Positions 28,612 to 62,618 of a stretch of 64,000 nt of DNA are shown piece after piece. The first letter of the stretch is position 1, and each line of letters begins with the position of its first letter. This DNA is from Promethearchaeia archaeon (GTDB lineage: Archaea > Asgardarchaeota > Lokiarchaeia > Sigyniarchaeales > SOKP01), in contig JAWOCD010000017.1 of NCBI GenBank assembly GCA_046483985.1, forward strand, positions 46,024 through 110,023, given 5' to 3'. The notes beneath the pieces are model-generated. The model was not told the DNA's origin and did not search any database. It saw only the letters and a program-made list of their open reading frames with translations. The translations under genes were made by a program, and so were the position numbers.

Positions 28612-30192
28612 TTAATTTTTCTCTAAATTACGTACTCCTAATTTAATTTGCTTGGAGAACATTTCGTTTCCATTCTTGGAAGGGTTTTGAAATTTGATAA
28701 TACAGTGGAAAGTAACTTTCCCCTCGTTTTGTTTTGATAAAATGTATTTCCTCTGTAATTTTTCATGGAGATCTAATGCTTTAATAAGTTCATTTTTTGC
28801 GCTCAGTTTAATTCGGTTAGGTGGTTTCCAATTCAGTCGATAGGAAAAATTTCTGAAAACAACATTACCCTTGTTTCTAATCGTTAAAGTTAATATGAGT
28901 TTTTTATTTTGTCGTCTTATCTTATAGTTGATTTGTAGTATTTGGGAGAAAATATGAGTTTTCAGCGCGAGATCCGAAAGCTCATCAATATTTTTGATCT
29001 GAGCACCGATGTAAGCAGAAGTAGAAAAAGTATTAATTTCATTTATTAGTGCATGGAGATCTTCTGGAAGGAAAGTAAAATCGAGTAAGTTTTTTAGGGT
29101 TTTTTGGGAAAGCATTGTGAAAACCAAAATTAGAAATCGCTCTTTATGCTTTTTGGAGTTCCTGTCTAGTTCGTAAAGGAGGCTTTTCTCGTAAGATTTA
29201 ATGAAAATCTTTAACAGAAAATTATATAGTGTACTCTGCTTAGAAGAGGAGAGAAGGAGGCTTTTGGCTGAAAAATCATCACATACCCCGAGATAAAATG
29301 AAAGGAATTCAAGTCTGTTAATTTTCAAGCCACATTTACCCAAAAACATCAATGTTCGAAAAATATTCTTTAAAAATTTAAATGTGTCATTTTTGGAAAT
29401 GGAATCGGATTCTCTTTGTAAGGTATTAATCATTTTGGCTGTCAATTCTATTTTCTCTTCTCCTAGATTTAGAAAAAGTTTTTGATTCCCCGTTAAAATT
29501 TTGAGAATTAATTTGGTATATCGTCCCCTCGCATAAATATTTGTTAAAAAAATGGCCAAATCATAAATAACAAGATTCGTTTCCTTGTCTGAAAGTTCTA
29601 TGAGCAGATACTTTTTCAATAAATGGAAGAAAATCTCCCGATTTATAATAAAATCCAATACTTTTTTCTTATAGAGTTTGGCCGAAATCTTGAGGACTTT
29701 ATTTCTTGTATATTTTACCCCTATAGACCTATTTTTCTTTAAATGCATATGGGCATCTGCCTCTATTACAAAAGGGAGTGTTAGATTTAACCCAAAATTC
29801 TGATTTACCTTTGTTAAGCTTCCCGTAAATTTTTTCCGGAAATGCCGGGTTATATCATGTATGGTCGTTTTTTCTTTTTCTTTTGGTAAGGAGTAGTGTT
29901 TTGTAGTGGCTTCCTTGATTTTTTTGAATTTCTTTGACTCCTTCTCAATATTTTCCCCTCCTACCATTTGAGCGTTTTTAGAGAAAAGATAAACTCTCGC
30001 TTTTCTAGCGTATTCCACTAAAACAACAAATTGAATACGTCCGAGTTGCTTGACATCTAATGAAGGAAGGACACCACGGGTGAAGATGCTTTTTGCCTTC
30101 ACTCTTAATACTTTCACGGTTTTCGGTCGTTTCTCTTCATATTCTTTTTGAGCAAATTTTACAATATCCTTTAAGTGACTCCTTCCCTTCAT
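28612..30192 (-). CDS. Hypothetical basic protein with possible C-terminal Ig-like domain
   Basis: 526-aa ORF; LTLTIRNKG beta-sandwich-like tail. Confidence 0.6.
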   Translation of the reverse strand: MKGRSHLKDIVKFAQKEYEEKRPKTVKVLRVKAKSIFTRGVLPSLDVKQLGRIQFVVLVEYARKARVYLFSKNAQMVGGENIEKESKKFKKIKEATTKHYSLPKEKEKTTIHDITRHFRKKFTGSLTKVNQNFGLNLTLPFVIEADAHMHLKKNRSIGVKYTRNKVLKISAKLYKKKVLDFIINREIFFHLLKKYLLIELSDKETNLVIYDLAIFLTNIYARGRYTKLILKILTGNQKLFLNLGEEKIELTAKMINTLQRESDSISKNDTFKFLKNIFRTLMFLGKCGLKINRLEFLSFYLGVCDDFSAKSLLLSSSKQSTLYNFLLKIFIKSYEKSLLYELDRNSKKHKERFLILVFTMLSQKTLKNLLDFTFLPEDLHALINEINTFSTSAYIGAQIKNIDELSDLALKTHIFSQILQINYKIRRQNKKLILTLTIRNKGNVVFRNFSYRLNWKPPNRIKLSAKNELIKALDLHEKLQRKYILSKQNEGKVTFHCIIKFQNPSKNGNEMFSKQIKLGVRNLEKN

Positions 30193-31186: not shown

Positions 31187-31774
31187 ATGACTATTGAAAA
31201 GCAAAAGATTGCTAAAATTATTCACATTGAGGAGTATATAGACGAGCCTACAAAGTTTTCCCACCTTTTTGAAGTCCAATTACCACCAGAAAAAATTAAT
31301 CTATGGAAACCTCGGAGGAATTTCAATATGGGAACGCCCTTAATAGGAGATTTATATCTTGATTTAGAAGAAGAAGATATGCTGGAAATCCATCCATTTC
31401 CAGAATGGGTTGTTCAACTATATTATCCAGCCAACCAAAAAAGTATCCCTTATCTTGTTGTTCCTAATCTCCCGAAAGCAAAAATCAGAAAATTAAGAAG
31501 AAAATCTATAGATCAAAAAATAGACATTATCGACCAAGAGATTAAACATATTAAGATTGAAAATCTGATCGCTTTTGAATATAAAGTGGGCATTAACATA
31601 ATGGTGCGTGCCTTTATCCCTCATTTTTTTATATCATCGCATATAGACAAAGAAAAAGGTGAAAACCCGCCTTATCTTCAAGTTTTTGAACCTGAACTAA
31701 GTGCCTTAACCGAAAACCTTGAAATTAAGACAAGTTATTTCTTTAGGTTACCCTATAAGGTTTATATATCTTAA
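31187..31774 (+). CDS. Hypothetical protein
   Basis: 195-aa ATG ORF; no motif recognised. Confidence 0.55.
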   Translation: MTIEKQKIAKIIHIEEYIDEPTKFSHLFEVQLPPEKINLWKPRRNFNMGTPLIGDLYLDLEEEDMLEIHPFPEWVVQLYYPANQKSIPYLVVPNLPKAKIRKLRRKSIDQKIDIIDQEIKHIKIENLIAFEYKVGINIMVRAFIPHFFISSHIDKEKGENPPYLQVFEPELSALTENLEIKTSYFFRLPYKVYIS

Positions 31775-32015: not shown

Positions 32016-33092
32016 TTAGATGATTTCGTAATTTACGGGGAGGCCATCCCTTTGTTTTTCCATAAATTCATTAATCAATTTAAGATGTTCTGAAAATTGA
32101 TTAAAGGAAATTTGTTCATCTTTATATCTCTGAGTTATATTCTGGATGATATAGGCGGGAGTAAATTTAATAAACCGAATATCGGAGAACAAGATGACCT
32201 TCCCTTGCCCTTCAAAAATATAATTCCCCTTGAGTAAATCGTCTAAGACATCTTGTCTATTATTGAGAATATTTAAACATTCGTTCACGGTGAGAACTTC
32301 GTTTCTCAATTTTTTAATTAAGGAAAATATGGGTTTATCCATTAAAAAGTGCAAGATTCTCTTATTTTCAATTTCGGACGTACAGTCGAAGGTTGCGTAA
32401 AATTCTTGAAACTCATTTATATACGTATCATACAGTCCCCCATCCTTGTCTGAAATCGTAAGCTCATGGGGAGGGATTCTAATACAAGATAAATCCTTTA
32501 TAAGAAAGTAACAGTTGTCACACCCGGGGATATTTTTCTTTTTAACTAAACCCTCGCGTATAAATGTACTAAGAATTAAATCAATATTTGAGGTTGAGAA
32601 TCCATATTGTTTCCTTAAAAGGGATTTCAATTGAATCTTGGAGAGGACCCCTTTTTGGAGAATCTTTAAAATGGTGTGTTTAATCTTATCGCGGAAAAAA
32701 CTCAGAAGATTTTCTTCTTTATCTAATTTTGTATAGTTTTTAAGCGTGGTATATGCTTCACTAATAGCCCTTGTAATTTTATTGGAATTGATTAACTCCA
32801 CTAAATTCTTACTTATAATACCGATTATATCTGGATTATCTTGGATTACATCTTTTACATGATCTTGATCTGTATATTCCACCATTAAAAAATAAATCTC
32901 GCCCTCAAATTTATGGATAACCGAGATATAACTGTGCTCATTTTTCTCTTCAGGGGTATAATTAATCATAGATTCTGCTTTATTCAATTCGTGTTTTGCC
33001 CAGATTTTTAGAAAAAGATCTTTAGAAGGGAAATTATGTTCTGGGGGATACTGGATAATTGCCTCAGGACCTGTAGATTTATTCCAATGCAC
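32016..33092 (-). CDS. Longin/uDENN plus wHTH protein, NPRL2/NPRL3-like architecture (true start probably ATA at 33107)
   Basis: (IRLIIV)HWNKSTGPEAIIQYPP resembles NPRL2 FHPTLGPKITYQVP; ILKILQKG...DLILSTFIREGLV wHTH. Confidence 0.65.
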   Translation of the reverse strand: MHWNKSTGPEAIIQYPPEHNFPSKDLFLKIWAKHELNKAESMINYTPEEKNEHSYISVIHKFEGEIYFLMVEYTDQDHVKDVIQDNPDIIGIISKNLVELINSNKITRAISEAYTTLKNYTKLDKEENLLSFFRDKIKHTILKILQKGVLSKIQLKSLLRKQYGFSTSNIDLILSTFIREGLVKKKNIPGCDNCYFLIKDLSCIRIPPHELTISDKDGGLYDTYINEFQEFYATFDCTSEIENKRILHFLMDKPIFSLIKKLRNEVLTVNECLNILNNRQDVLDDLLKGNYIFEGQGKVILFSDIRFIKFTPAYIIQNITQRYKDEQISFNQFSEHLKLINEFMEKQRDGLPVNYEII

Positions 33093-33109
33093 AATTATAA
33101 GTCTTATTT

Positions 33110-34906
33110 CTAATCACCCCTCCCTTCTGCTTTAACCTCAACGAGTTCTGGGATTTCTGGTATCAATTCGAAATATTTTCTTTGGAAATGCCGTTCAAGA
33201 ATAGGATCAATCCGTTTTTTCCATAAATTTACATCAACTCCGGAAAAGGCTTTATCTTTAAGAGAGAACTTCCGTTCAATATCTTCTATAAAATGATCTA
33301 ACTTATTCCTTAAAATTCGTAATTCTTCTGTTAAAATTAGAGCAAATATCAGTTTCTTGTTTTTGCTGAATCCAAACAATATTTTTTTTCCGCCGTGATC
33401 GATTACCCTTAATTTTTTTTCTTCTTTCGTAATTTCTTGTAGCATGGTAATGAGTCCGATAAAACCCCCACTTGCTAAGTCTGATTCTATCGCATCTTCA
33501 TCAATGGGTTTAAATGACTTTTCATAGAGGAGCATTCCAGATTCATGAATTACAAACAAATGAATGAGATAATCGGGCCAGTTTTGTTCCTTGGGATTTA
33601 CTGTTTCCTCAATATTAGAAAGTAGAAAGAGACTAATTATTGAGCCTAAATTAATTACTCCAATTATAAAGATTTCACGGGTGTATTTATTCGCAAAAAA
33701 TGTTGTTGGGATATTCATCGCAGTGAAAAGACCCAGAATGATACTAAAAAGCATAACAGCGAAAGAAATGCCAAATACCTTTCCTAAGTCTTTTCGCTCT
33801 GTTATGTCACTCATTAACAAGGGAACTGTCATAAAGCTCGCTAAAAATGCAGCAAAAAATACGGTCAGTCCGAAATAAGGTATATTAATCTCAAATAATC
33901 TGAGGAAATTCACAATTGAAATCGCTAAAATGATGCTTGAAACCGTGGTTTTTCTTCCATAAAAATCGAACACAGCACCCACACTGATTCCTGTTATTAA
34001 AGAAAACGAGACAGCAATAAAGACCACTACAAATGTGAGAACACTTGGCCATTCTCCAAAATAAAAAATCTCAATATCTACTATAAAAAAATTGGTAAGC
34101 ATTCCTATTGTAAAACCAAAAAAGGCGATCATTATGATATATTTGATAATTCGAATATTGATTTCGGTTGAATCTTTACCAATAACTATTGGTTTGTAGG
34201 GCTTTTCTTCTTCTTTATTTTTATAGAGATAAATAATGGCGCCAATAATGATTAAAACGGGCAGCGTGATAAGGATTTCATTAGCTATTAAAAAGAACAT
34301 AATACCTAGGGTAATAATTAGTAAGATAATTAAATATGAATATACACGACCACGTTCTAATATTGTGGTGAAATCAATAAAATAAGTCGCTAAAAATATG
34401 TAAAGTATCCCTGCAATGACACTATTGGTAAGAAAAAAGAGAGAAGGAACTAAATCTCCGGTTCTTCTAAAGAATCCTATATGCAAAGTAGTAATTAATA
34501 CAGATAAGAGTAAAATTTTGAAAAGCAATGGATATCTTTTTCCTTTAACTTTATCTAAAGTAAAGCCGCCGATCAAAAAACCAATTGCCACACCGATAAT
34601 AATAAAAAAACCCGATTGTAACGGGAAATTCCTATAAGCTCTCGTACCAAGATCTATGGTCAAAAATATGTCAATCATAAGTGTGGAGGCAAAACAAACA
34701 GCTATGAGATACAGCGTAAGAAACTGCTTTTTTGTGATTTCGATATCTTTAAATAATCCTTTATACGTCTTCTCCGTTTGTTTTTTAATATATTCTCTAA
34801 TTTTCTCTTCATAAATCTCTTTTTCGAGGCTGTGTTTTGAATCCTTAATCTTCTTCTGATTTTGATCCTTCCCGTTTTCTTGCTGGTTATTTTCCATTTT
34901 TTTCAT
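33110..34906 (-). CDS. MFS-fold transporter fused to a C-terminal longin-like domain
   Basis: About 12 TMs with motif-A loops GFTLDKVKGKR and GAVFDFYGRK, ERGRVYS; soluble tail LIHLFVIHESGMLLYE...SDLASGGFIG...IDHGGKKILF. Confidence 0.8.
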   Translation of the reverse strand: MKKMENNQQENGKDQNQKKIKDSKHSLEKEIYEEKIREYIKKQTEKTYKGLFKDIEITKKQFLTLYLIAVCFASTLMIDIFLTIDLGTRAYRNFPLQSGFFIIIGVAIGFLIGGFTLDKVKGKRYPLLFKILLLSVLITTLHIGFFRRTGDLVPSLFFLTNSVIAGILYIFLATYFIDFTTILERGRVYSYLIILLIITLGIMFFLIANEILITLPVLIIIGAIIYLYKNKEEEKPYKPIVIGKDSTEINIRIIKYIIMIAFFGFTIGMLTNFFIVDIEIFYFGEWPSVLTFVVVFIAVSFSLITGISVGAVFDFYGRKTTVSSIILAISIVNFLRLFEINIPYFGLTVFFAAFLASFMTVPLLMSDITERKDLGKVFGISFAVMLFSIILGLFTAMNIPTTFFANKYTREIFIIGVINLGSIISLFLLSNIEETVNPKEQNWPDYLIHLFVIHESGMLLYEKSFKPIDEDAIESDLASGGFIGLITMLQEITKEEKKLRVIDHGGKKILFGFSKNKKLIFALILTEELRILRNKLDHFIEDIERKFSLKDKAFSGVDVNLWKKRIDPILERHFQRKYFELIPEIPELVEVKAEGRGD

Positions 34907-35217: not shown

Positions 35218-36639
35218 TCAAGCAGGAATTTCGGCGATATCGTGAGTGGTGTCGTTTAACCAATGTTGCATTAATTTTAATGTATTTTGAGTCGCTTGAA
35301 CTTCTGCATAACCCGAAATTTTAGGATCTAGATTACCCCCTACCCCATTTAACACATAATGGGTTCCGTTGATTAGATTATGTTCATAAGAATGACCATG
35401 TCCAAAAAAGACGAGACTCACATTGAATGTATCGGCTAAATCTGTCACTCGAGGCATCCGATTATTTATGTTATCATTCTTTCCCCTGAGTGGCGGAGGA
35501 TGTAAACATATTATTCTAAAGGTTTTATTCATCGATTTCTGTAAATCTTCTTGGGCCCATTCCAATTGATCATCGTCCAGTTTATCAAATCCGCCTTCTT
35601 CATCCTTCGTAATATTCCATGGATCTAACATCGTAAAATGGATTTGACTATAATTAAATGAGTAATAGAACTGCTTATTAGTTTGCCTTTCCAGCGGATA
35701 AAATTTTGCAAAAATGTCCCCTTCAGTATCATCAAAGCGTTCATGATTTCCTACAACGTCTACTAGAGGAGCAGAAGAAGCTAATTCACTATGTACAGAA
35801 ATATCATCAAACCATGATTTCCAAGTAGGATAACGGGTTCCCTTCGAAGTAATATCTCCGGTGACGATGGTAAACTCTGGAAAGTTACCCTCCGAAGTGG
35901 CTTTTTCAGCCATATATTTGGGAACATTAGGCCCGAGCAAGCAACCTAGATCAGCACTATTTTGTCTAGGATCTGAAAAAACCAAAAAATTGAAGGAAGA
36001 ATTAAGTGAAGGAGCAGTCATGAAGCTATGGATGGTTTCATCAAATTCGTTTATCCGATAATAGTAGGTAGTATTGGGATTCAATCCGGTTATGCCGATT
36101 TGATGCCATTCGACCAATTCACTATCCTCCGATATATTCAGAGAACTTTCACTAAATTCCTTATCCGAGGTAAAACTTATACTTGATTTGGCTGGATCCA
36201 CTGTTCGCCACATTATTGTGACCTCTGTTGAAGGGTCTTGACCAGAACCCCAAGTTAATATGGGTCCAGTATTATAATGCCTCGCACTATAGAAAAAATT
36301 GATCTCCCAGATACCAATTGTGCTTGCTGTAATACCAATGATTAGAAAAAAAATAAAGGTCGCTGGCCAGATTTTCTCTACGTTTTCTTTTTTCTTGATT
36401 TTTAAAATCATCACTCGAATGGAAATAAATACCATTCCAATGATAAAAATTGCTACAGCAGGAAGGATGATCCCTACAATATTAAATCCAGAAAGGTATA
36501 AATATTCCGCATAGGCAGATAAAAATAAGGGTAAAATAATTAGAAAAGCTAGCGGAACAATTAAACTGATTTTAAGTAAAGTTAACTTAAATTTTGTAGA
36601 TCTGAAAATCTTCATATGATGTGTAAAACGTGAATCCAA
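35218..36639 (-). CDS. Membrane-anchored purple-acid-phosphatase-like metallophosphoesterase (FN3 plus MPP)
   Basis: 3 N-terminal TMs, GLNPNTTYYY, SD, TGD, GNHE, HPP, GHGHSYE. Confidence 0.85.
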   Translation of the reverse strand: MDSRFTHHMKIFRSTKFKLTLLKISLIVPLAFLIILPLFLSAYAEYLYLSGFNIVGIILPAVAIFIIGMVFISIRVMILKIKKKENVEKIWPATFIFFLIIGITASTIGIWEINFFYSARHYNTGPILTWGSGQDPSTEVTIMWRTVDPAKSSISFTSDKEFSESSLNISEDSELVEWHQIGITGLNPNTTYYYRINEFDETIHSFMTAPSLNSSFNFLVFSDPRQNSADLGCLLGPNVPKYMAEKATSEGNFPEFTIVTGDITSKGTRYPTWKSWFDDISVHSELASSAPLVDVVGNHERFDDTEGDIFAKFYPLERQTNKQFYYSFNYSQIHFTMLDPWNITKDEEGGFDKLDDDQLEWAQEDLQKSMNKTFRIICLHPPPLRGKNDNINNRMPRVTDLADTFNVSLVFFGHGHSYEHNLINGTHYVLNGVGGNLDPKISGYAEVQATQNTLKLMQHWLNDTTHDIAEIPA

Positions 36640-46079: not shown

Positions 46080-47417
46080 ATGAAGAGAGTAAAAGTTTTT
46101 ATTTTTTTCTATCTGATTGGTTTTTTCCCCTCAATATCGACTTATTTTCTCGTAACAACCCCAGATATTTCTAATCACGCCACATTTCATTTACAAAATG
46201 AAAACAGCGTCAGCAAGTATGAAAATCCGCAAAATGTAACCTATAAAATCGAGACATCATTAGTTTTACAAAACTCCATCGAACTAGGAGACTATTATTT
46301 TAAAAATGCCAGGGTCGACAATAGAACTTTTGATTCGCAATTAACGCCGCGTGTCCCTCCATATCAGATTTCTAATTGTGAGTCCCTCAACATTAATGGT
46401 AATACCACGTCAATACAGTTTCAACAAGATAGATTCAATAATACCTATGATTCATTTAATTCGACCTCCCTTAACGAAGGAAGCGAAATTACAATCGATT
46501 ACGAATATGAAGTGACCCTCAATGAAATCTTGTTTGATAATATTACGGAAAACGATATTGGCGAATATGATCAATCAGAAAAAATCTTTGACTTGTACTG
46601 CAATAAATCGGTGGAATATTTTAATACATCGGATCCCGATTTAATCAATCGTGCGGACTCCATTGTTGATTCCGGTGATAATCCAGTCGAGAAGGCAGAA
46701 AAGATTTTTGATTGGATAATCGAAAATATCGAATATGATGAAACCCTCGATGAAGAAAAAGGCGCTACCTACGCATATGCAAACAGAACGGGAGATTGCA
46801 GTGAGTTTTCTGATTTAATGGTCACGCTTCTAAGAATTCAAGGCATTCCGGCTAGAAAGGTTACAGGGTTTGTATTAACTAATAATCCATTGACTGAACT
46901 AGAGGAGGAACAAGAATGGAACTACGATCTATCATATGATTCTAATAGCCAAACTATTAGTTCAGATAATCCATATCTGGGTCATGCATGGATAGAATAC
47001 TATGTTCCTCAAGTGGGGTGGATTGCATGCGATCCCACGTGGGGCGTCCAAGCAGAAGAGCAAGAGGAAATGGACTACTTTAACCGAATTGATTATCTTC
47101 ATTTCGGAACGACTGTAGGGTCTCACATTCCTTATCCTCCTGGTGAAAATTGCAGTGAATTTCCATTTTTACCAGAACCGGTTGTATTAATAGGGGGTTC
47201 AGAATATCTTTATGAAGTAAATACCAAAATTACTATTTTAGAAACCAATTTAAGCCTTTCGGATAGGGAACCCGAGTTATGGATGATAGTTTTGAGCATT
47301 ATCCTTGTCTCCGCAATAATAGCGGGCATTATTGGGACGATAGTTATCATTATAAAAAAAGTCTATAAAAACGACGAGCGTCACGAAGTCAATACAAGTG
47401 AGAGATCTTATATGTAA
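46080..47417 (+). CDS. Membrane-anchored transglutaminase-like cysteine protease
   Basis: GDCSEFS..LLR..GIPAR, HAWIE, DPTW triad; N-terminal and C-terminal TM. Confidence 0.9.
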   Translation: MKRVKVFIFFYLIGFFPSISTYFLVTTPDISNHATFHLQNENSVSKYENPQNVTYKIETSLVLQNSIELGDYYFKNARVDNRTFDSQLTPRVPPYQISNCESLNINGNTTSIQFQQDRFNNTYDSFNSTSLNEGSEITIDYEYEVTLNEILFDNITENDIGEYDQSEKIFDLYCNKSVEYFNTSDPDLINRADSIVDSGDNPVEKAEKIFDWIIENIEYDETLDEEKGATYAYANRTGDCSEFSDLMVTLLRIQGIPARKVTGFVLTNNPLTELEEEQEWNYDLSYDSNSQTISSDNPYLGHAWIEYYVPQVGWIACDPTWGVQAEEQEEMDYFNRIDYLHFGTTVGSHIPYPPGENCSEFPFLPEPVVLIGGSEYLYEVNTKITILETNLSLSDREPELWMIVLSIILVSAIIAGIIGTIVIIIKKVYKNDERHEVNTSERSYM

Positions 47418-48706
47418 GTTTTGATTAACTCGTGAATAATATTAGAGAATTCGGGAATTTCCTCTTCGATTTGTTCTATACTTTGGAATTCTTCCATAAA
47501 GAGCATGAGGTATAATTTATATTTCCCGACGTTGATTCGTTTAAAGACCACTTTTTTAGCCTCATCGGTTATTCCGGATGAGACAATAAAATTTTGCTTG
47601 AGTAATTTGAATTCCTTAAATGTTTTATATAGGGTTTTAAAATGAGGTGCTGACAGTTCAAACACTTTTCCAAATACCTCATCCTTTGCATAATTGGCCA
47701 GAATAATGCCATTTTCATTTAATAATAAGATTGCGTCAGAATCAGTTTTATTGGCGAATATTCGTAACTGCTGCTCAAACAAATCTCTATTTGGGCTTAA
47801 CTGCGATAACCCAAAGGAATATGCAGAGATTAATGACCATCGATCAAAAATAGAGGTTTTAAATATTTTAATAAAAAAGTCTTCGGAATATTCGTTGAGC
47901 TTATCCTTCAATTTATCAATGTTGTTGTTAATTTCCGTAGATTCTTGTAAGTCGGGGTCGTATTTGTTTAAACAAATAACAATTGGGGGTGATTCATTTA
48001 ATTCTTTTAAAGAATTGATAATATCTTTATAAAGCTTTAATGCCTCATTCATTCGTTCACTATCTTGTACATCAATAATATAGAATAAAAGATCGATATT
48101 ATACAAGTAGATCTTACTTTGTTTAATATATTTATCCCGGTAGCGCTTTTGACCCCCGAGATCCCAAATAGAAATTTGAGAATTTTGTTGGGAGAACAAT
48201 TTTTCCTCACTTCTATCTAATCCCTTGGTGGGAAGAAGTTTTATAATTTCGGAATATTTTTCTTTTATCGCTTTGAGGAAGGACGTTTTTCCCGCGTAAT
48301 CAAGACCTGCATAGACTATCTTAATTTTTCGCTTTGCGGAGAGCGGATTTTCCAAATCTTGGGTAAATTCCATCAATTCCTCTTTAAGCGCGTCCATTAT
48401 TTTCCTATATTCCTCTAAGTCTCCAGCAGCTTGAAGAAGTGAAGCGGTTTTATCGATGATAATCCTTAAGTATTTCATATTTTCATAAAAAAAGCTGGTG
48501 TTATCCTCGTCTATTAAGACGGTAATTGTGCTGGCTTTTGCTTGCCCCCTGGCTTTTTCATCAGCAATCAAGAAGAAATATGTTAATCCAATTAATCCTA
48601 AATCAGGAAATGGAAGTATTCCAAAATAATTTACGCCTTTAATTTCTGTGCCGTTTTGATAAACAGCATCACCCATCAAAAGGGAAATTGTTTTCATTGC
48701 AATCAA
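47408..48706 (-). CDS. Longin - Arf/Rag-like small GTPase - roadblock three-domain protein (true start probably ATC at 48817)
   Basis: G1 GLDYAGKTS, G2 PTKG, G3 WDLGGQ, G4 NKYD, G5 TSI; C-terminal AILLLNENGIILA roadblock; upstream in-frame IKSIILSVFDDDGPTPKVYWP longin. Confidence 0.88.
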   Translation of the reverse strand: MIAMKTISLLMGDAVYQNGTEIKGVNYFGILPFPDLGLIGLTYFFLIADEKARGQAKASTITVLIDEDNTSFFYENMKYLRIIIDKTASLLQAAGDLEEYRKIMDALKEELMEFTQDLENPLSAKRKIKIVYAGLDYAGKTSFLKAIKEKYSEIIKLLPTKGLDRSEEKLFSQQNSQISIWDLGGQKRYRDKYIKQSKIYLYNIDLLFYIIDVQDSERMNEALKLYKDIINSLKELNESPPIVICLNKYDPDLQESTEINNNIDKLKDKLNEYSEDFFIKIFKTSIFDRWSLISAYSFGLSQLSPNRDLFEQQLRIFANKTDSDAILLLNENGIILANYAKDEVFGKVFELSAPHFKTLYKTFKEFKLLKQNFIVSSGITDEAKKVVFKRINVGKYKLYLMLFMEEFQSIEQIEEEIPEFSNIIHELIKTYI

Positions 48707-53333: not shown

Positions 53334-54299
53334 TTACTTATAAAGAACTTTCTTTAAGAGGGAAACAAACGATTCGCTGTGTTCTTCCTTGAAATCGGGG
53401 GTGTTTTTTAGCAATAAAAGGTAGTAGGGTGCTGTTTCTGTTTCAAATGATATTTGTTTAAAGAGGAAATACTTTCCAAATCTCTGGACGACCATAGATT
53501 CATCAGCCTGGTCTTTGAGCGTGCCTTGACCAAGTTCCCGTCCTTTAAGTGAATCATTCAGAGTTAAGAAATAAGGCGTACTGGAACTCAAGATATGTTT
53601 AATATCTTCATCTTCATAATATTGACCGATGATCAAGGAATTATCATCCAATACCACAACTCCTTGGGCATCGACCTTTTTTGCAAACTCCTCGATCGTT
53701 TTTTCAATTAATTCCGATTTCGGATAGAGAGCCAATAAGATTTCCGACATTGCGGTAATTATAGTAGACAGGTCATAGATGGTAGTTTTATAGAAATATA
53801 ATTTTTTGTAATCGGTAAGGTTTTTAATCTTATCCTTTAGATTTAGGAGGAGATGATTCATTTCTTTTTTTGCGCTTTTCATTAACGCCGGATCTAACTT
53901 GTGAAAAAATACATAGATGGGGGGTCCAATTTCTAATTTAGCAAATTGTTCTATTACATCCGTGAGATAGCTTAAGGCTTCCGGTATTCTCGGTTTATTC
54001 TGAATATCGATTACATAAATGCAGATTTCGGTTCCATCAAAATATTTTGAGGGATTTTTGAGATAAGAGATTCGGTATGAGATTTGCCCTCCTAAGTCCC
54101 ATTCTGATATATCGCGTCCTAAGAATTGGAAAATGCGTCTCTGAGCGCCCCGGGTGGGCTTTAAAATCGCAATCTTTGAAAATTCTCTCTGTAAAGACTT
54201 AATTATTGACGTTTTCCCCGCCATATCCAACCCAGTAAAGAGGATTTTCCTTGCTTCTTTATCTTCTTTTTCTTTTAAATATTCCATAGTTTTAACCAA
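53334..54299 (-). CDS. Arf/Rag-like small GTPase with C-terminal roadblock domain
   Basis: GLDMAGKTS, PTRG, WDLGGQ, HKLD (Rag-type G4); GVVVLDDNSLIIG roadblock. Confidence 0.88.
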   Translation of the reverse strand: MVKTMEYLKEKEDKEARKILFTGLDMAGKTSIIKSLQREFSKIAILKPTRGAQRRIFQFLGRDISEWDLGGQISYRISYLKNPSKYFDGTEICIYVIDIQNKPRIPEALSYLTDVIEQFAKLEIGPPIYVFFHKLDPALMKSAKKEMNHLLLNLKDKIKNLTDYKKLYFYKTTIYDLSTIITAMSEILLALYPKSELIEKTIEEFAKKVDAQGVVVLDDNSLIIGQYYEDEDIKHILSSSTPYFLTLNDSLKGRELGQGTLKDQADESMVVQRFGKYFLFKQISFETETAPYYLLLLKNTPDFKEEHSESFVSLLKKVLYK

Positions 54300-57202: not shown

Positions 57203-59374
57203 TTAAAAAACTTTAAATTCCGTTTCTTTCCACTTGTCATAATTTGCAAAAATCTTTTTAATTTTATGAAGGATTTCATCAAATGTTTCTTGTAATTCGG
57301 CATTATCTCCAAAAGTTTCGGTGATGACCTTAGAAAAGTCCACATCGTATTCGGTCGTCAATTCAGATATCTTTTCCAAATCTGAATGATTTATTCCTTG
57401 TTCTTTTAATTCACTTATTACTGAACGCACTTCATTTTTGAGTTGGGTGGTTGCATTGAGCGCTTTCGTACTCTTGTTAAACAATTTTCTTTCCCTTTCA
57501 TAGGTGATCCTATCGTCTTCGGTTAGCTCCTCTTCTTTGACGGTATCCAAACGCTCTTCTAGAATTCTTTTAACTCGTTTATAGATCTTTATAGATTCAT
57601 CAATTTTTTGTAAGCACTTTAACAGATCTGTTTTCACGTTTAATCTGGCTTCCACGATTTTAAGATAGGCATCCTCATAAAGGATCTGTAATTCGCCGAA
57701 TGTACTTTTTTCCCATTCGTCAATTCGTAGTTTTAATTGATGTAAATCTTGTCTTAATTGTCCTCGTTCTTTTGGAGTAAGTTTTCGCTTTTTTAACGAT
57801 TTATAAATACCTTTTGCATCTTTTTTGGCCATCAATGCCTTTAGTTTCAGTATATGCGCTTTATTTTCAATATTAGTTATACTCCGATTCTCTCCTTCAC
57901 GCTCACAGAACTTCAAGATCTTAATGGCATCGCTGATCAAAGTATAAAACTTTTCCTTATCAGATTCAATGTAGTATTTGGAGTCTTGGATTTTTTGTTT
58001 GGCTCTATCCATCAAAATTTCAATTTCAAAGATATAATCGATTAAGCTTACTTGTTTTCGTTCCGAAAGTATTTTTGATTTTTCTTCCATATCCTCCATG
58101 ACATGCCTTCCTGCAAAAAACCACAAGATGGCAGAAGGTATCCACAATAAGACCGCAAATACCATCATATTAAATACGCTTCCCAACATTGTAATAAGAG
58201 AAAACGATAATAAAAGGGTCATCCCTTTTCCAAGTTGCTCTGACAATTTAAAGAAGGAAGTGGCAGTGCCTTTATGTTCTGGTAAATTCACATCGATCAT
58301 CACCGCATTCTTGTTTGAAACCCATCCGGTGGAAAAGATTGAGCCTAAAAAGGCAAAAATAAAGTAGTAAATATACTGTGGATATGCCTTAAATATCTCA
58401 ATAATGGTTAAAATGATGTAGTCCCATATCTCATCGGTGGGAATTGTAGCGGGATAATTCATACTCCCAATAAATCCTTCTCCTAAGGGTGTAATGGAAA
58501 ATAACATCAAGAGGCAGAATGGAACGGTTAAGACCATGCAAATGGTGGCAAATCGCGAGCGATACCTTTTATTAATGCGATAGAGAACATCGCTAATATA
58601 TGAGAGTATTGCATTTCCCAGCAAATATCCTATGCCAACCATACCGGCGAAAATGGTAGCCGTTTGTAATCGGATGTTTGCGGGTAAGAGGTAGAAATAA
58701 TGGGAGGATAACATCGAGGTCATAAAAAAGATTAAAATCGTTCCTGGAATAATGGCAAAAAAGCCTTGAAGAATCAGATATTTGTTTGTTTTTTTATCTA
58801 CAATCTCTTTTAAGTCTTGCTTCGCAATCCGGTATGTATATTCCAAATCCATTTCCGTTAGATCGACTAATTCATCTTCACTGGCTCCTCTCTGCGGAAT
58901 CTTTACGAAAAAGAGAATTACAATAACGCCTATACTAATTCCCGAGAGTAAGAGAAACGGAAATCTCCACGTAAAAAGGGGTCCTAAAAAAGAGGATAGA
59001 CCTTGGCCCACACCATTGGAAATAGAACTCTGAATGGCAAGGGTTCCAAACCAGCCTGAACGCTCCTCTGGAGGAATCGCATCCGATATAATGGAGTATC
59101 CGACCGGCATAACACAACCGAGACCCGCTCCGCTGGCCAATCTGGAAATTACCAACATAAGATAATTCATACTGAATGAAGTGAGAAGCATTCCAATAGT
59201 CCACGAAAACGCTCCAGCTAAGATGACTTTGCTCCGATTAATCCTGTCTGTATAATATCCCCAGACAACCGCGAACCCCGCGCTGATTAGAACGAAAAAC
59301 GCGTCCGGAATTGCGATATATGCCTCGGGGATGTTAAACTCTTCCTTAATAATACCATATGAGGGAATCAGCAT
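57203..59374 (-). CDS. Spinster-like MFS transporter with ~290-aa C-terminal helical cytoplasmic domain (true start probably ATT near 59461)
   Basis: WGYYTDRINR, ISDAIPPEERS, WRFPF, DVNLPEHKGT; charged helical tail. Confidence 0.85.
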   Translation of the reverse strand: MLIPSYGIIKEEFNIPEAYIAIPDAFFVLISAGFAVVWGYYTDRINRSKVILAGAFSWTIGMLLTSFSMNYLMLVISRLASGAGLGCVMPVGYSIISDAIPPEERSGWFGTLAIQSSISNGVGQGLSSFLGPLFTWRFPFLLLSGISIGVIVILFFVKIPQRGASEDELVDLTEMDLEYTYRIAKQDLKEIVDKKTNKYLILQGFFAIIPGTILIFFMTSMLSSHYFYLLPANIRLQTATIFAGMVGIGYLLGNAILSYISDVLYRINKRYRSRFATICMVLTVPFCLLMLFSITPLGEGFIGSMNYPATIPTDEIWDYIILTIIEIFKAYPQYIYYFIFAFLGSIFSTGWVSNKNAVMIDVNLPEHKGTATSFFKLSEQLGKGMTLLLSFSLITMLGSVFNMMVFAVLLWIPSAILWFFAGRHVMEDMEEKSKILSERKQVSLIDYIFEIEILMDRAKQKIQDSKYYIESDKEKFYTLISDAIKILKFCEREGENRSITNIENKAHILKLKALMAKKDAKGIYKSLKKRKLTPKERGQLRQDLHQLKLRIDEWEKSTFGELQILYEDAYLKIVEARLNVKTDLLKCLQKIDESIKIYKRVKRILEERLDTVKEEELTEDDRITYERERKLFNKSTKALNATTQLKNEVRSVISELKEQGINHSDLEKISELTTEYDVDFSKVITETFGDNAELQETFDEILHKIKKIFANYDKWKETEFKVF

Positions 59375-61439: not shown

Positions 61440-62618
61440 TTAATTCTCTCCTCTCTGTTTGATGAGAATGGTCAGAACCAGGAAAGTAAGTGAAACCGCA
61501 CTTGATACGAGTAAATGCATGGAAAAACTTAGAGTGTCGATGAAACGGAATGAAAATGCCGTGGAAATGAAGGTCATTAACCATCCGCCAATGCCTATCC
61601 CGAGTCCGGAAAACTTTCCTACGGATTCTGGAGCAGAAATATCGGCCCAGAGGGCAAACAACACGATAGTGTACATAGATACTGCTCCACAATAGAGGAT
61701 TCCCAGCACTTGACTAAGGAAAATCGTTTCGTTGAAGAGCGCAAAAAATAAATCCGTAAGAAAAATCATCCAGAGCGAAATAATTAAGATGAGATAGGGT
61801 TTAGACTTTGTATAAAGAAATCCGGAAATTAACGCAAATCCGGTATGCGATATAACGAGAAACATTTTGATTTCAAGACCCCCTCTCCACACATTTGCAT
61901 AGATCTCGGGCGTCTCGATAATTCGTAAGAACCCCAAGCTATCTACAAAAATAACACCGAACAACGCAAGAATAAGAAGCCCCTTATTATAATGAATAAA
62001 GGAACCTTCAGCAAGAAAAATCTCCTTCTTTTCCTCATTTCTAAAGAGTTTGAACACTATAATAATTGCGAATATGGGAATACTTGGCAGCAACCCAAGC
62101 GAGATTTCTTTAATGAACCCCGAAATATTCCACGGGAAAGGGGATAAAATCCCGTATGAGTAAATAAAGGCGGTTGCAACGGCAGCAAATATTCCACGAT
62201 ATTTTGGTCGAATAAAATCCCGAAGGAGACTAATGGATATTGGTGTTTCTACTCCCATAACAACCCCGAGGAGTATTATCCAGAGAATAAATAATGGAAC
62301 CGAATTGAAGGAAAGGAATGAAAGTATCAACGGGGTCTGAATCAGAAAACAGAGAAAAAGAATCTTGATCTTTTCTTCTACACGCCAGTTGAATTTGTCG
62401 ATGATATATCCAACTATTAGGCAGATGGATGCAGTTAATAGGGCCAGCAGCATCATATACCCCACGACATCAATATTTGACAAATTCAAATGATTTATGA
62501 TAAAATCCGGGATGCCGAGCTGAATAAATTTAATGATAAACGTAAACCCTGCCACAATAATGATCAGGTAAAAAAATACCCCAATGAGCTCGTTTTTTCG
62601 TAATCGTTTAAGATTCAT
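61440..62618 (-). CDS. MFS-like integral membrane protein
   Basis: About 12 TMs; GYIIDKF, DFIRPKYRG. Confidence 0.7.
   Translation of the reverse strand: MNLKRLRKNELIGVFFYLIIIVAGFTFIIKFIQLGIPDFIINHLNLSNIDVVGYMMLLALLTASICLIVGYIIDKFNWRVEEKIKILFLCFLIQTPLILSFLSFNSVPLFILWIILLGVVMGVETPISISLLRDFIRPKYRGIFAAVATAFIYSYGILSPFPWNISGFIKEISLGLLPSIPIFAIIIVFKLFRNEEKKEIFLAEGSFIHYNKGLLILALFGVIFVDSLGFLRIIETPEIYANVWRGGLEIKMFLVISHTGFALISGFLYTKSKPYLILIISLWMIFLTDLFFALFNETIFLSQVLGILYCGAVSMYTIVLFALWADISAPESVGKFSGLGIGIGGWLMTFISTAFSFRFIDTLSFSMHLLVSSAVSLTFLVLTILIKQRGEN

Follow-up and report, generated by a model that had tools for sequence, protein, structure and literature searches.

Longin domains heterodimerise into platforms that act as guanine nucleotide exchange factors (GEFs) or GTPase-activating proteins (GAPs), namely NPRL2/3 in GATOR1, FLCN-FNIP, and Mon1-Ccz1. 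The locus analyzed here raises the question of whether an archaeal membrane carrier with a longin tail and the longin protein encoded directly behind it form a working pair, and on what such a pair would act. It lies in a 64,000-nucleotide stretch of contig JAWOCD010000017.1 from a Promethearchaeia archaeon, an Asgard archaeon of Loki type (assembly GCA_046483985.1, positions 46,024 to 110,023 of the forward strand), called the window below; window positions are used for all coordinates, and the source assembly comprises 4.06 Mb in 128 contigs. Two minus-strand open reading frames (ORFs), at 33110 to 34906 (gene A) and 32016 to 33092 (gene B), span exactly the region singled out by an earlier interpretation of the letters, the sequence-only reading. 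Both were confirmed as real coding genes with relatives far beyond chance, 40 for A and 299 for B at E ≤ 0.001 in sequence databases. Protein A is predicted to be a carrier of the major facilitator superfamily (MFS) that ends in a cytoplasmic longin domain, protein B is a predicted soluble longin and double winged-helix protein, and the two genes appear to form a two-gene operon that is strictly co-inherited wherever an ortholog of A exists. The features of the pair are the following.

33110 to 34906, minus strand: gene A, predicted MFS-type membrane protein with a C-terminal longin, 598 amino acids (aa), or 595 aa in the database copy, which begins at the second methionine; from the ORF, 40 relatives, and hydropathy.
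33611 to 34729, minus strand: A residues 60 to 432, 12 predicted transmembrane (TM) segments arranged 6+6, from family-averaged hydropathy.
33113 to 33601, minus strand: A residues 436 to 598, predicted cytoplasmic longin and short C-terminal peptide, from an AlphaFold2 (AF2) model and fold searches.
33113 to 33123, minus strand: Shine-Dalgarno-like GGAGGGGTGAT, within the 3' end of gene A and 5 nt before an ATA codon, read from the sequence.
32016 to 33107, minus strand: gene B, predicted longin, winged helix, and winged helix, 363 aa from ATA at 33107 or 358 aa from GTG at 33092.
32793 to 33107, minus strand: B residues 1 to 105, longin in the model, with W8-N9-x3-G13-P14 in the first hairpin.
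32472 to 32726, minus strand: B residues 128 to 212, first winged helix in the model, with RosR, MecI, and ArsR-type fold matches at Z 7.3 to 7.7.
32154 to 32342, minus strand: B residues 256 to 318, second winged helix in the model, with profile matches to PH1932 and HlyU.

Conservation of the gene order had been named beforehand as a test of the pair, and the order held throughout. Orthologs of A were defined as A matches at E ≤ 1e-100 within 400 genomes of the phylum; A matches as such occurred in 218 of the 400 genomes, mainly via paralogs. In each of the 12 genomes with an A ortholog (G000, G150, G155, G165, G157, G275, G156, G153, G276, G274, G154, and G148), B was located directly downstream of A on the same strand, the copy in G156 being known from an 89-residue fragment at a contig end. 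Metagenome contigs with an A ortholog numbered seven, and B followed A in all six that could be evaluated, the seventh ending within A. At the orthologous loci the two genes are separated by 2 to 85 nt or overlap. The pair was also present in G130 and G133, which belong to other families and whose A and B proteins are 32 to 34% and 26 to 30% identical, respectively, to those of the window; in G134, A and B lie 3.4 kb apart on opposite strands. With a gap of 2 to 17 nt in the window and a Shine-Dalgarno-like site inside the end of A, the two genes are probably co-translated.

The sequence-only reading placed gene B immediately behind the stop codon of gene A (TAG, 33112 to 33110), which is borne out with a gap of 2 or 17 nt, depending on the start of B. 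Upstream of the GTG, the B frame contains an ATA codon (33107 to 33105) at which the closest relative has methionine. The homologues of B share the N terminus M-x-(R/K)-I-I-I-V-H-W, which begins seven residues earlier than the GTG start, and the window frame reads I-R-L-I-I-V-H-W. Shine-Dalgarno sites are complementary to the 3' end of 16S rRNA, and 5 nt separate the candidate site GGAGGGGTGAT from the ATA codon that follows it. Because the methionine of the homologues falls at this codon, the candidate site precedes it at 5 nt, and a start at GTG would delete most of the first longin strand of the B model, B probably starts 2 nt past the stop of A, and the true gap is probably 2 nt, not 17 nt. 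The ATA would be either a rare, non-canonical start codon or a base error of the assembly. Gene B begins ..HWNKSTGPEAIIQYPP.., and the hairpin at its start is as the sequence-only reading had written it.

Hydropathy averaged over 35 family members resolved 12 hydrophobic segments in A, in a 6+6 layout around a central cytoplasmic loop at residues 230 to 248, while a scan of the single sequence at a stricter threshold gave 11. With Pfam, MFS_1 matched the window's A with 27 bits, under the cut-off of 33.4, and reached E ≤ 0.001 in 26 of 35 family members (best 6e-13). The A sequence had no match in PDB, and the A profile gave only chance hits among PDB sequences, with no MFS chain. The loop after TM2, GGFTLDKVKGKRY, carries the conserved G-x3-D-K-x2-G-K-R, and the loop after TM8, FDFYGRK, is conserved as F-D-F-x-G-R-K and echoes it; G113, G114, D118, F313, D314, G317, and K319 are invariant across 35 A sequences. 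Both loops look like the MFS gating motif known as motif A (G-x3-D-[RK]-x-G-[RK]-[RK] type). By segment layout and loop motifs, A is classed as an MFS-type carrier. Since the gating-loop motifs are conserved, the sequence suggests that A still cycles between conformations, and A may still transport.

The tail of A (residues 436 to 598) was modeled with 21 relatives, with a predicted local distance difference test score (pLDDT) of 79.2 and a predicted template modeling score (pTM) of 0.73. Two helical turns of 4 residues each (tail positions 3 to 6 and 8 to 11) precede a strand-strand-helix-strand-strand-strand-helix-helix order, which is that of a longin, with strands at 447 to 454, 459 to 464, 499 to 504, 507 to 513, and 519 to 525 and helices at 475 to 493, 530 to 546, and 559 to 574. 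In a VIA-align comparison with 48,161 solved chains, all of the best 50 rows were longin or roadblock chains, led by 7q3d_C (Z 11.7, 139 aligned, root mean square deviation [rmsd] 4.3), 8yah_C (11.4), 4afi_B (11.4), and a Prometheoarchaeum roadblock (11.1). Foldseek returned 95 matches at E ≤ 0.001, with TRAPP longins first (E 1.1e-5) and MglB also leading. The Z gap to roadblock chains is under one unit, too close to separate the two folds, and the tail was therefore called a longin on its topology. Pfam matches were sub-threshold only (Fuz_longin_1 in 4 of 22 sequences, best 0.0025; Sybindin in 2 of 22, best 1e-4). Among the orthologs, the tail is the best-conserved part of A, 56 to 67% identical versus 37 to 52% for the whole protein, and its most conserved motif is IDHGGKK, in the hairpin between the third and fourth strands. 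The model thus agrees with the earlier description of A as a 12-TM MFS protein with a cytoplasmic longin tail. An arginine finger could not be demonstrated in the tail. The C-terminal RKYFELIP peptide was considered as a marker of transporters linked to B and rejected, being present in the paralogs L053 and L059, which are without B.

The AF2 model of B, built with 59 relatives and numbered on the 363-residue form, reached a pLDDT of 91.9 and a pTM of 0.78. It predicts a longin plus two winged helices, as the sequence-only reading had supposed when it saw a longin-type start and segments like winged helix-turn-helix domains. The modeled longin comprises strands at 2 to 9, 13 to 20, 47 to 50, 59 to 67, and 70 to 78 and helices at 29 to 41 and 84 to 104, and the remaining parts are a linking helix after the longin, helices between the winged helices, and two closing C-terminal helices. 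In Foldseek searches with the whole length of B, the best three matches were chains of 363 to 370 residues from GATOR1 entries (9v0j_A, E 4.1e-4; 9o5d_D, 5.2e-4; 9o5a_H, 1.6e-3), aligned over 339 to 344 columns with a TM-score of only 0.18 to 0.20; from their length, we infer that these chains are NPRL2. VIA-align aligned well only the longin part of B. The closest chain was that of a Lokiarchaeal Roadblock-Longin protein (8yqg_A, Z 12.0, 125 aligned, rmsd 2.9), followed by yeast Lst4 (4zy8_D, 11.3), folliculin-complex chains (6nzd_I, 11.3, and another at 10.1), and GATOR1 (7t3b_B, 9.9). A wide search independent of Foldseek put the same six families first, at Z 10.7 to 9.7, with generic longins at 9.4 or less. 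NPRL2 was tried as the nearest relative of this longin over FNIP/Lst4 and was not singled out, the Z values being tied within about one unit.

The B family was found in 293 of the 400 genomes of the phylum, and in the ESM Atlas B matched only Promethearchaeota clusters. The B sequence had no match among PDB sequences, and the profile of the second winged helix (positions 243 to 316) matched PH1932 (E 3.3e-4) and HlyU (0.0053). For 60 family members at E ≤ 1, the Pfam matches considered were all those of the window protein and, out of 94 families, the 25 that occurred most often; they were winged-helix families only, all sub-threshold, including TFIIE_alpha, HTH_5, TrmB, and HTH_20. The first-hairpin motif, W8-N9-K-S-T-G13-P14 in the window, has W in 57, G in 59, and P in 25 of the 60 members, with D, N, or S at the second position. 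Profile-profile comparison gave no similarity between the A tail and B (probability 0.1), which is neutral for their pairing.

The paralogs of B offer a view of how the family may be used. The source genome holds about six full-length B-family genes. For two of these, both on contig C32, the start coincides with or adjoins the stop codon of a gene that encodes a giant surface protein, of 1163 aa in one case and at least 1367 aa in the other (L050:3266-7845 and L065:3-5210). The domains of these surface proteins are Ig-like, CarboxypepD_reg, and DUF2341, and a single C-terminal membrane helix leads into a conserved cytoplasmic tail of about 80 residues. Of the 61 genomes sampled from the family, 52 have the B paralog that is linked to these surface proteins. 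In G169 (five copies, in tandem in G169:C9) and G219, a B-type module lies within open frames of 2655 to 2678 aa, and two fused ORFs of 2663 to 2678 aa were confirmed (L104:590-8623 and L105:556-8544). Their order is a signal or anchor helix, about 2150 extracellular residues, a membrane helix, the tail, and a complete B-type module. Such fusions are classic evidence for a joint function of proteins that are separate elsewhere, and the B family would accordingly serve, in the cytoplasm, as partner to whichever membrane protein the upstream gene encodes. By extension, B most likely acts on the cytoplasmic side of A.

From these results, we tentatively read A and B as a membrane-bound pair that relays the state of the carrier to a cytoplasmic effector, likely a Rag/Arf-like GTPase, although we would put this at somewhat short of an even chance. 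B would be made together with A by co-translation and would bind A from the cytoplasm, the simplest mode being a contact between the two longins like that of FLCN-FNIP, NPRL2-NPRL3, and C9orf72-SMCR8. Once at the membrane, the pair may pass the transporter state to the effector, for which one of the Rag/Arf-like small GTPases of the genome is the most likely candidate. The directly supported part of this relay consists of the folds, the operon and its conservation, and the finding that paralogs are fused to membrane proteins or encoded right behind them. The relay is favored because of the gene order kept in all 12 genomes and all 6 evaluable contigs, the tail as best-kept part of A, the GP motif and the GATOR1-like matches of B, and the paralog fusions.

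Several findings weigh against the relay. A small GTPase gene stood beside the pair in one of 12 related loci (L035, Arf-like), and a small GTPase as conserved neighbor of the pair was rejected on that count. Orthologs of B that are 52 to 58% identical occur in the genera g10 and g11, where A was upstream in none of 29 loci, and because these orthologs persist without it, B does not need A. Conversely, a B-like gene was found in the flanks of none of 13 loci of A paralogs (about 29 to 38% identical, all longin-tailed; 3 loci on short contigs). The tail-type longin has its own role, independent of B, because kinases and other membrane proteins end in it with no adjoining B. In the source genome, 16 ORFs (on contigs including C24, C51, C71, C85, C93, and C123) carry it, among them another MFS protein, a membrane protein with 10 helices, three with 6 or 7, and large proteins that cross the membrane once. 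In other genomes it terminates PAS-HisKA(-HATPase) kinases and one TPR protein (L043:4372-8829, L044:1276-3510, and L045:3001-4827). The partner of the giant-protein paralogs is the tail of about 80 residues and lacks a longin, and longin-longin pairing is therefore not the general mode of the B family. Among the Pfam matches considered for the 60 members there was neither an NPR2 nor a folliculin family. The arginine finger of longin GAPs is positioned in the longin, and the B longin has no conserved arginine; its most arginine-rich column stands at 38%, and the sole arginine of the window's longin is residue 2. In this respect B resembles, by analogy, the partner without a finger in longin GAP pairs. 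The sequence-only reading had proposed a module linking solute binding to small-GTPase regulation; structure and gene order bear out the two-gene layout, while its proposed link to GTPases is weakened by the single GTPase neighbor in 12 loci, the lack of a conserved arginine, the occurrence of B without A, and the lack of an NPR2 or folliculin match among the Pfam families considered.

Another gene near the pair has to be considered as a possible partner of B.

31187 to 31774, plus strand: 195-aa ORF, candidate third component, a recurrent neighbor of B with no Pfam match.

Of the 25 genomes with this ORF, which is confined to one order, 8 have it next to B; in G131, G132, and G133 (family f3) it lies on the same strand right after B. 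Its ESM Atlas scores were below 0.9 and its model was poor. At the g10 and g11 loci without A (L002 to L030), B is preceded by a conserved helical protein of about 90 residues ending in PEFF or PDFF, replaced at some g10 loci by a VTT/DedA-type membrane protein, and at many of these loci it is followed by a multi-helix membrane protein of about 250 residues.

Gene order might have been inherited with no physical coupling of the products, the A tail working alone, in transporter dimerization or in docking a GTPase or roadblock partner, and B working elsewhere, for instance with the 195-aa neighbor. We regard this as unlikely but worth keeping in view. It would account for B without A in 29 of 29 g10 and g11 loci, for the 16 ORFs with a tail-type longin and its use on histidine kinases without B, for the 0 of 13 loci of A paralogs with B nearby, and for the 195-aa ORF, which stands beside B in 8 of 25 genomes and also without A in G131, G132, G162, and G163. 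The nearest structure to the B longin, 8yqg (Z 12.0), is a solved Lokiarchaeal longin, and because that entry is titled as a dimer, B may pair with itself. Uncoupled products are hard to reconcile with a same-strand B within 2 to 85 nt of every A ortholog, which holds for all 12 genomes and all 6 contigs and even at order-level divergence, with the Shine-Dalgarno-like site for B inside A, or with B paralogs fused to the upstream membrane protein. Two other explanations keep A and B together and give B a different task, and we hold each of them to be improbable. B could be a winged-helix transcription regulator with a longin sensor, held at the membrane by A and released according to transport, much as the regulator Mlc is bound by the glucose transporter PtsG. 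At profile level, ArsR-type regulators of archaea and bacteria match its second winged helix (PH1932 at 3.3e-4, HlyU at 0.0053), the sub-threshold Pfam matches of the family (TFIIE_alpha, HTH_5, TrmB, and HTH_20) point the same way, and the first winged helix matches RosR, MecI, and ArsR folds (Z 7.3 to 7.7) and has a net charge of +8 in the window's B. However, 17 of 25 tabulated family members, the window's B included, have an isoelectric point of 4.95 to 6.5, winged-helix charges range from −5 to +8 among members, and winged helix 2 has, in the position of a recognition helix, an acidic helix (NNRQDVLDDLL) that varies across the family. The permanent membrane-anchor fusion in G169 and G219 would moreover require proteolytic release, and in NPRL2-type proteins winged helices also serve protein contacts.

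In adaptor complexes, sorting signals are read by the small and medium subunits, which have the longin fold, and B could likewise be a cargo-type adaptor whose longin reads the cytoplasmic tails of selected membrane proteins, A for B itself and the giant surface proteins for its paralogs, and governs their placement, clustering, or turnover, with no GTPase-regulating activity of its own; this is the second of the improbable explanations. Three B-family genes of the source genome each follow immediately on a gene whose product is a membrane protein with its C-terminal tail in the cytoplasm, fused forms of the B module exist, and sigma and mu chains of adaptor complexes are among the fold matches of both longins (Z 8.2 to 11.4). 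The best matches of the B longin are nevertheless longins of GAP complexes, ahead by about one Z unit only; no coat or other adaptor subunits were seen near the pair in general scans of window proteins, and a 2025 study reports that adaptins lack the W-D/N ... G-P motif (PMC12290439). The relay may also be extended into a full archaeal transceptor, in which the MFS cycle is read by a tethered heterodimer of the A-tail and B longins acting as GAP or GEF on a Rag/Arf-like GTPase, a forerunner of the eukaryotic logic that joins solute carriers, GATOR or folliculin, and Rag, with the B family doing the same for giant receptors. This extension we rate as quite improbable, a long shot beside the relay itself.

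The Rag/Arf-like GTPases that are candidate outputs of the pair have two representatives in the window, Gtr1/RagA-like genes at 47408 to 48706 and 53334 to 54299, both on the minus strand and 12 and 18 kb from the pair, respectively. The former has an N-terminal extension of about 118 residues. No DEPDC5-like gene was noticed in general scans of window proteins.

Directly upstream of A, on the same strand, the window encodes a membrane-anchored phosphoesterase of calcineurin-like or purple-acid type (35218 to 36639, minus strand). A phosphoesterase stands upstream of A also at the distant G133 locus (L041:8182-9687; 22% identity, E 8e-14), and a GH38 mannosidase comes next after the phosphoesterase in the window and in locus L031. 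On the other side of the pair, a 526-aa ORF (28612 to 30192, minus strand) gave a weak sub-threshold match to Alpha_adaptinC2 (E 0.0047), and a relative that is 33% identical lies near the A-B pair in locus L034. Two further MFS-type genes were found on the minus strand, one of 723 aa at 57203 to 59374 with MFS_1 on residues 1 to 296 and one of 392 aa at 61440 to 62618 with MFS_1 on residues 3 to 160, each with a long non-MFS C-terminal part. The tail-longin profile did not match either of them.

Asgard archaea possess dozens of genes for longins, roadblock proteins, and small GTPases, and their working partnerships are hard to assign. Operons seldom help in pairing these proteins, as stated in the accessible part of a structural survey, in which Asgard longin, roadblock, and GTPase structures have already been published (PMC10933270). 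The A-B pair is an exception. Its two members, a transporter with a longin and an NPRL2-like protein, are strictly co-inherited and probably co-translated, and fusions join sister genes to surface receptors. The locus offers a small, defined protein pair in which binding, GTPase regulation, and DNA binding can be tested. If the pair does bind and act on a GTPase, wiring from a transporter to a longin GTPase regulator would predate the origin of eukaryotes.

Among eukaryotic systems, SLC38A9 with Rag and Ragulator is the lysosomal transceptor for Rag GTPases. The likeness to A is one of idea only, the cytoplasmic part of a solute carrier addressing longin or roadblock platforms. SLC38A9 transports amino acids, belongs to a different fold family, and has a disordered N-terminal tail instead of a longin; no homology with A is claimed. 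Closer in material is an NPRL2-like Asgard family with a longin and an NPRL2-type C-terminal domain, described from Thor and some Loki genomes by Liu et al. (bioRxiv 10.1101/2020.10.19.343400), a preprint that is used here through its main text and that reports many fusions of NPRL2-like longins to two-component signaling domains. The tail-type longin likewise terminates PAS-HisKA kinases. That main text differs in containing no transporters, permease fusions, winged helices, or operon of a transporter-longin with B, and the comparison of B and the tail with it is one of descriptions, not of gene clusters. An Asgard transporter paper names longin once, in its introduction (PMC7997004). In the literature searched, which took in Liu et al. 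without figures and supplementary data, no MFS or other transporter-longin fusion and no A-B operon was found. The statement in the sequence-only reading that no description of the pair was known therefore stands for the pair, whereas parts of it, NPRL2-like Asgard proteins and NPRL2-like longin fusions, had been published (bioRxiv 10.1101/2020.10.19.343400).

NPRL2 and NPRL3 (Npr2 and Npr3 in yeast) are the longin subunits of GATOR1/SEACIT, the GAP for RagA/Gtr1. They have about 360 to 380 residues, and the B model resembles them in size and in placing a longin at the N terminus, ahead of helices and winged helices in the C-terminal part; the B longin scores Z 9.5 to 9.9 against GATOR1 chains, and the GP motif of the first hairpin is common to NPRL2 and B (PMC12290439). 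They differ from B in that B has no Pfam match to NPR2 (60 members, E ≤ 1) and no conserved longin arginine, that its whole-chain TM-score is 0.18 to 0.20 only, and that a transporter tail takes the place of an NPRL3-like paralog as its candidate partner. The NPRL2-like label given to B in the sequence-only reading therefore holds for the whole-length matches to GATOR1 chains and for a longin near those of Lst4, folliculin, and GATOR1 but finds no support in Pfam; B has an NPRL2-like architecture, yet it is not a demonstrable member of the NPRL2 family.

According to the accessible sections of the 2025 study, the GP motif occurs in C9orf72, SMCR8, FLCN, NPRL2, and some Asgard longins and is absent from FNIP2, NPRL3, adaptins, TRAPP, and DENND, an arginine finger is named for FLCN, SMCR8, and an NPRL subunit, and the C9orf72 motif reads W33-D34 ... 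G38-P39 (PMC12290439). The B motif, W-[D/N]-x3-G-P, has the C9orf72 spacing, and B carries the GP signature of GAP-type longins. The C9orf72-SMCR8 and FLCN-FNIP complexes differ from A and B in having DENN domains in place of the two ArsR/RosR-type winged helices of B, and in that no arginine finger has been demonstrated in the A tail or B and the pair has no linked GTPase. In the fold searches, the B longin scored among its highest against folliculin-complex chains and Lst4 (Z 9.9 to 11.3), and the C9orf72-SMCR8 and FLCN-FNIP complexes are heterodimers of two unlike longins with the arginine finger on one of them only, which makes them the model for a pairing of the A tail with B.

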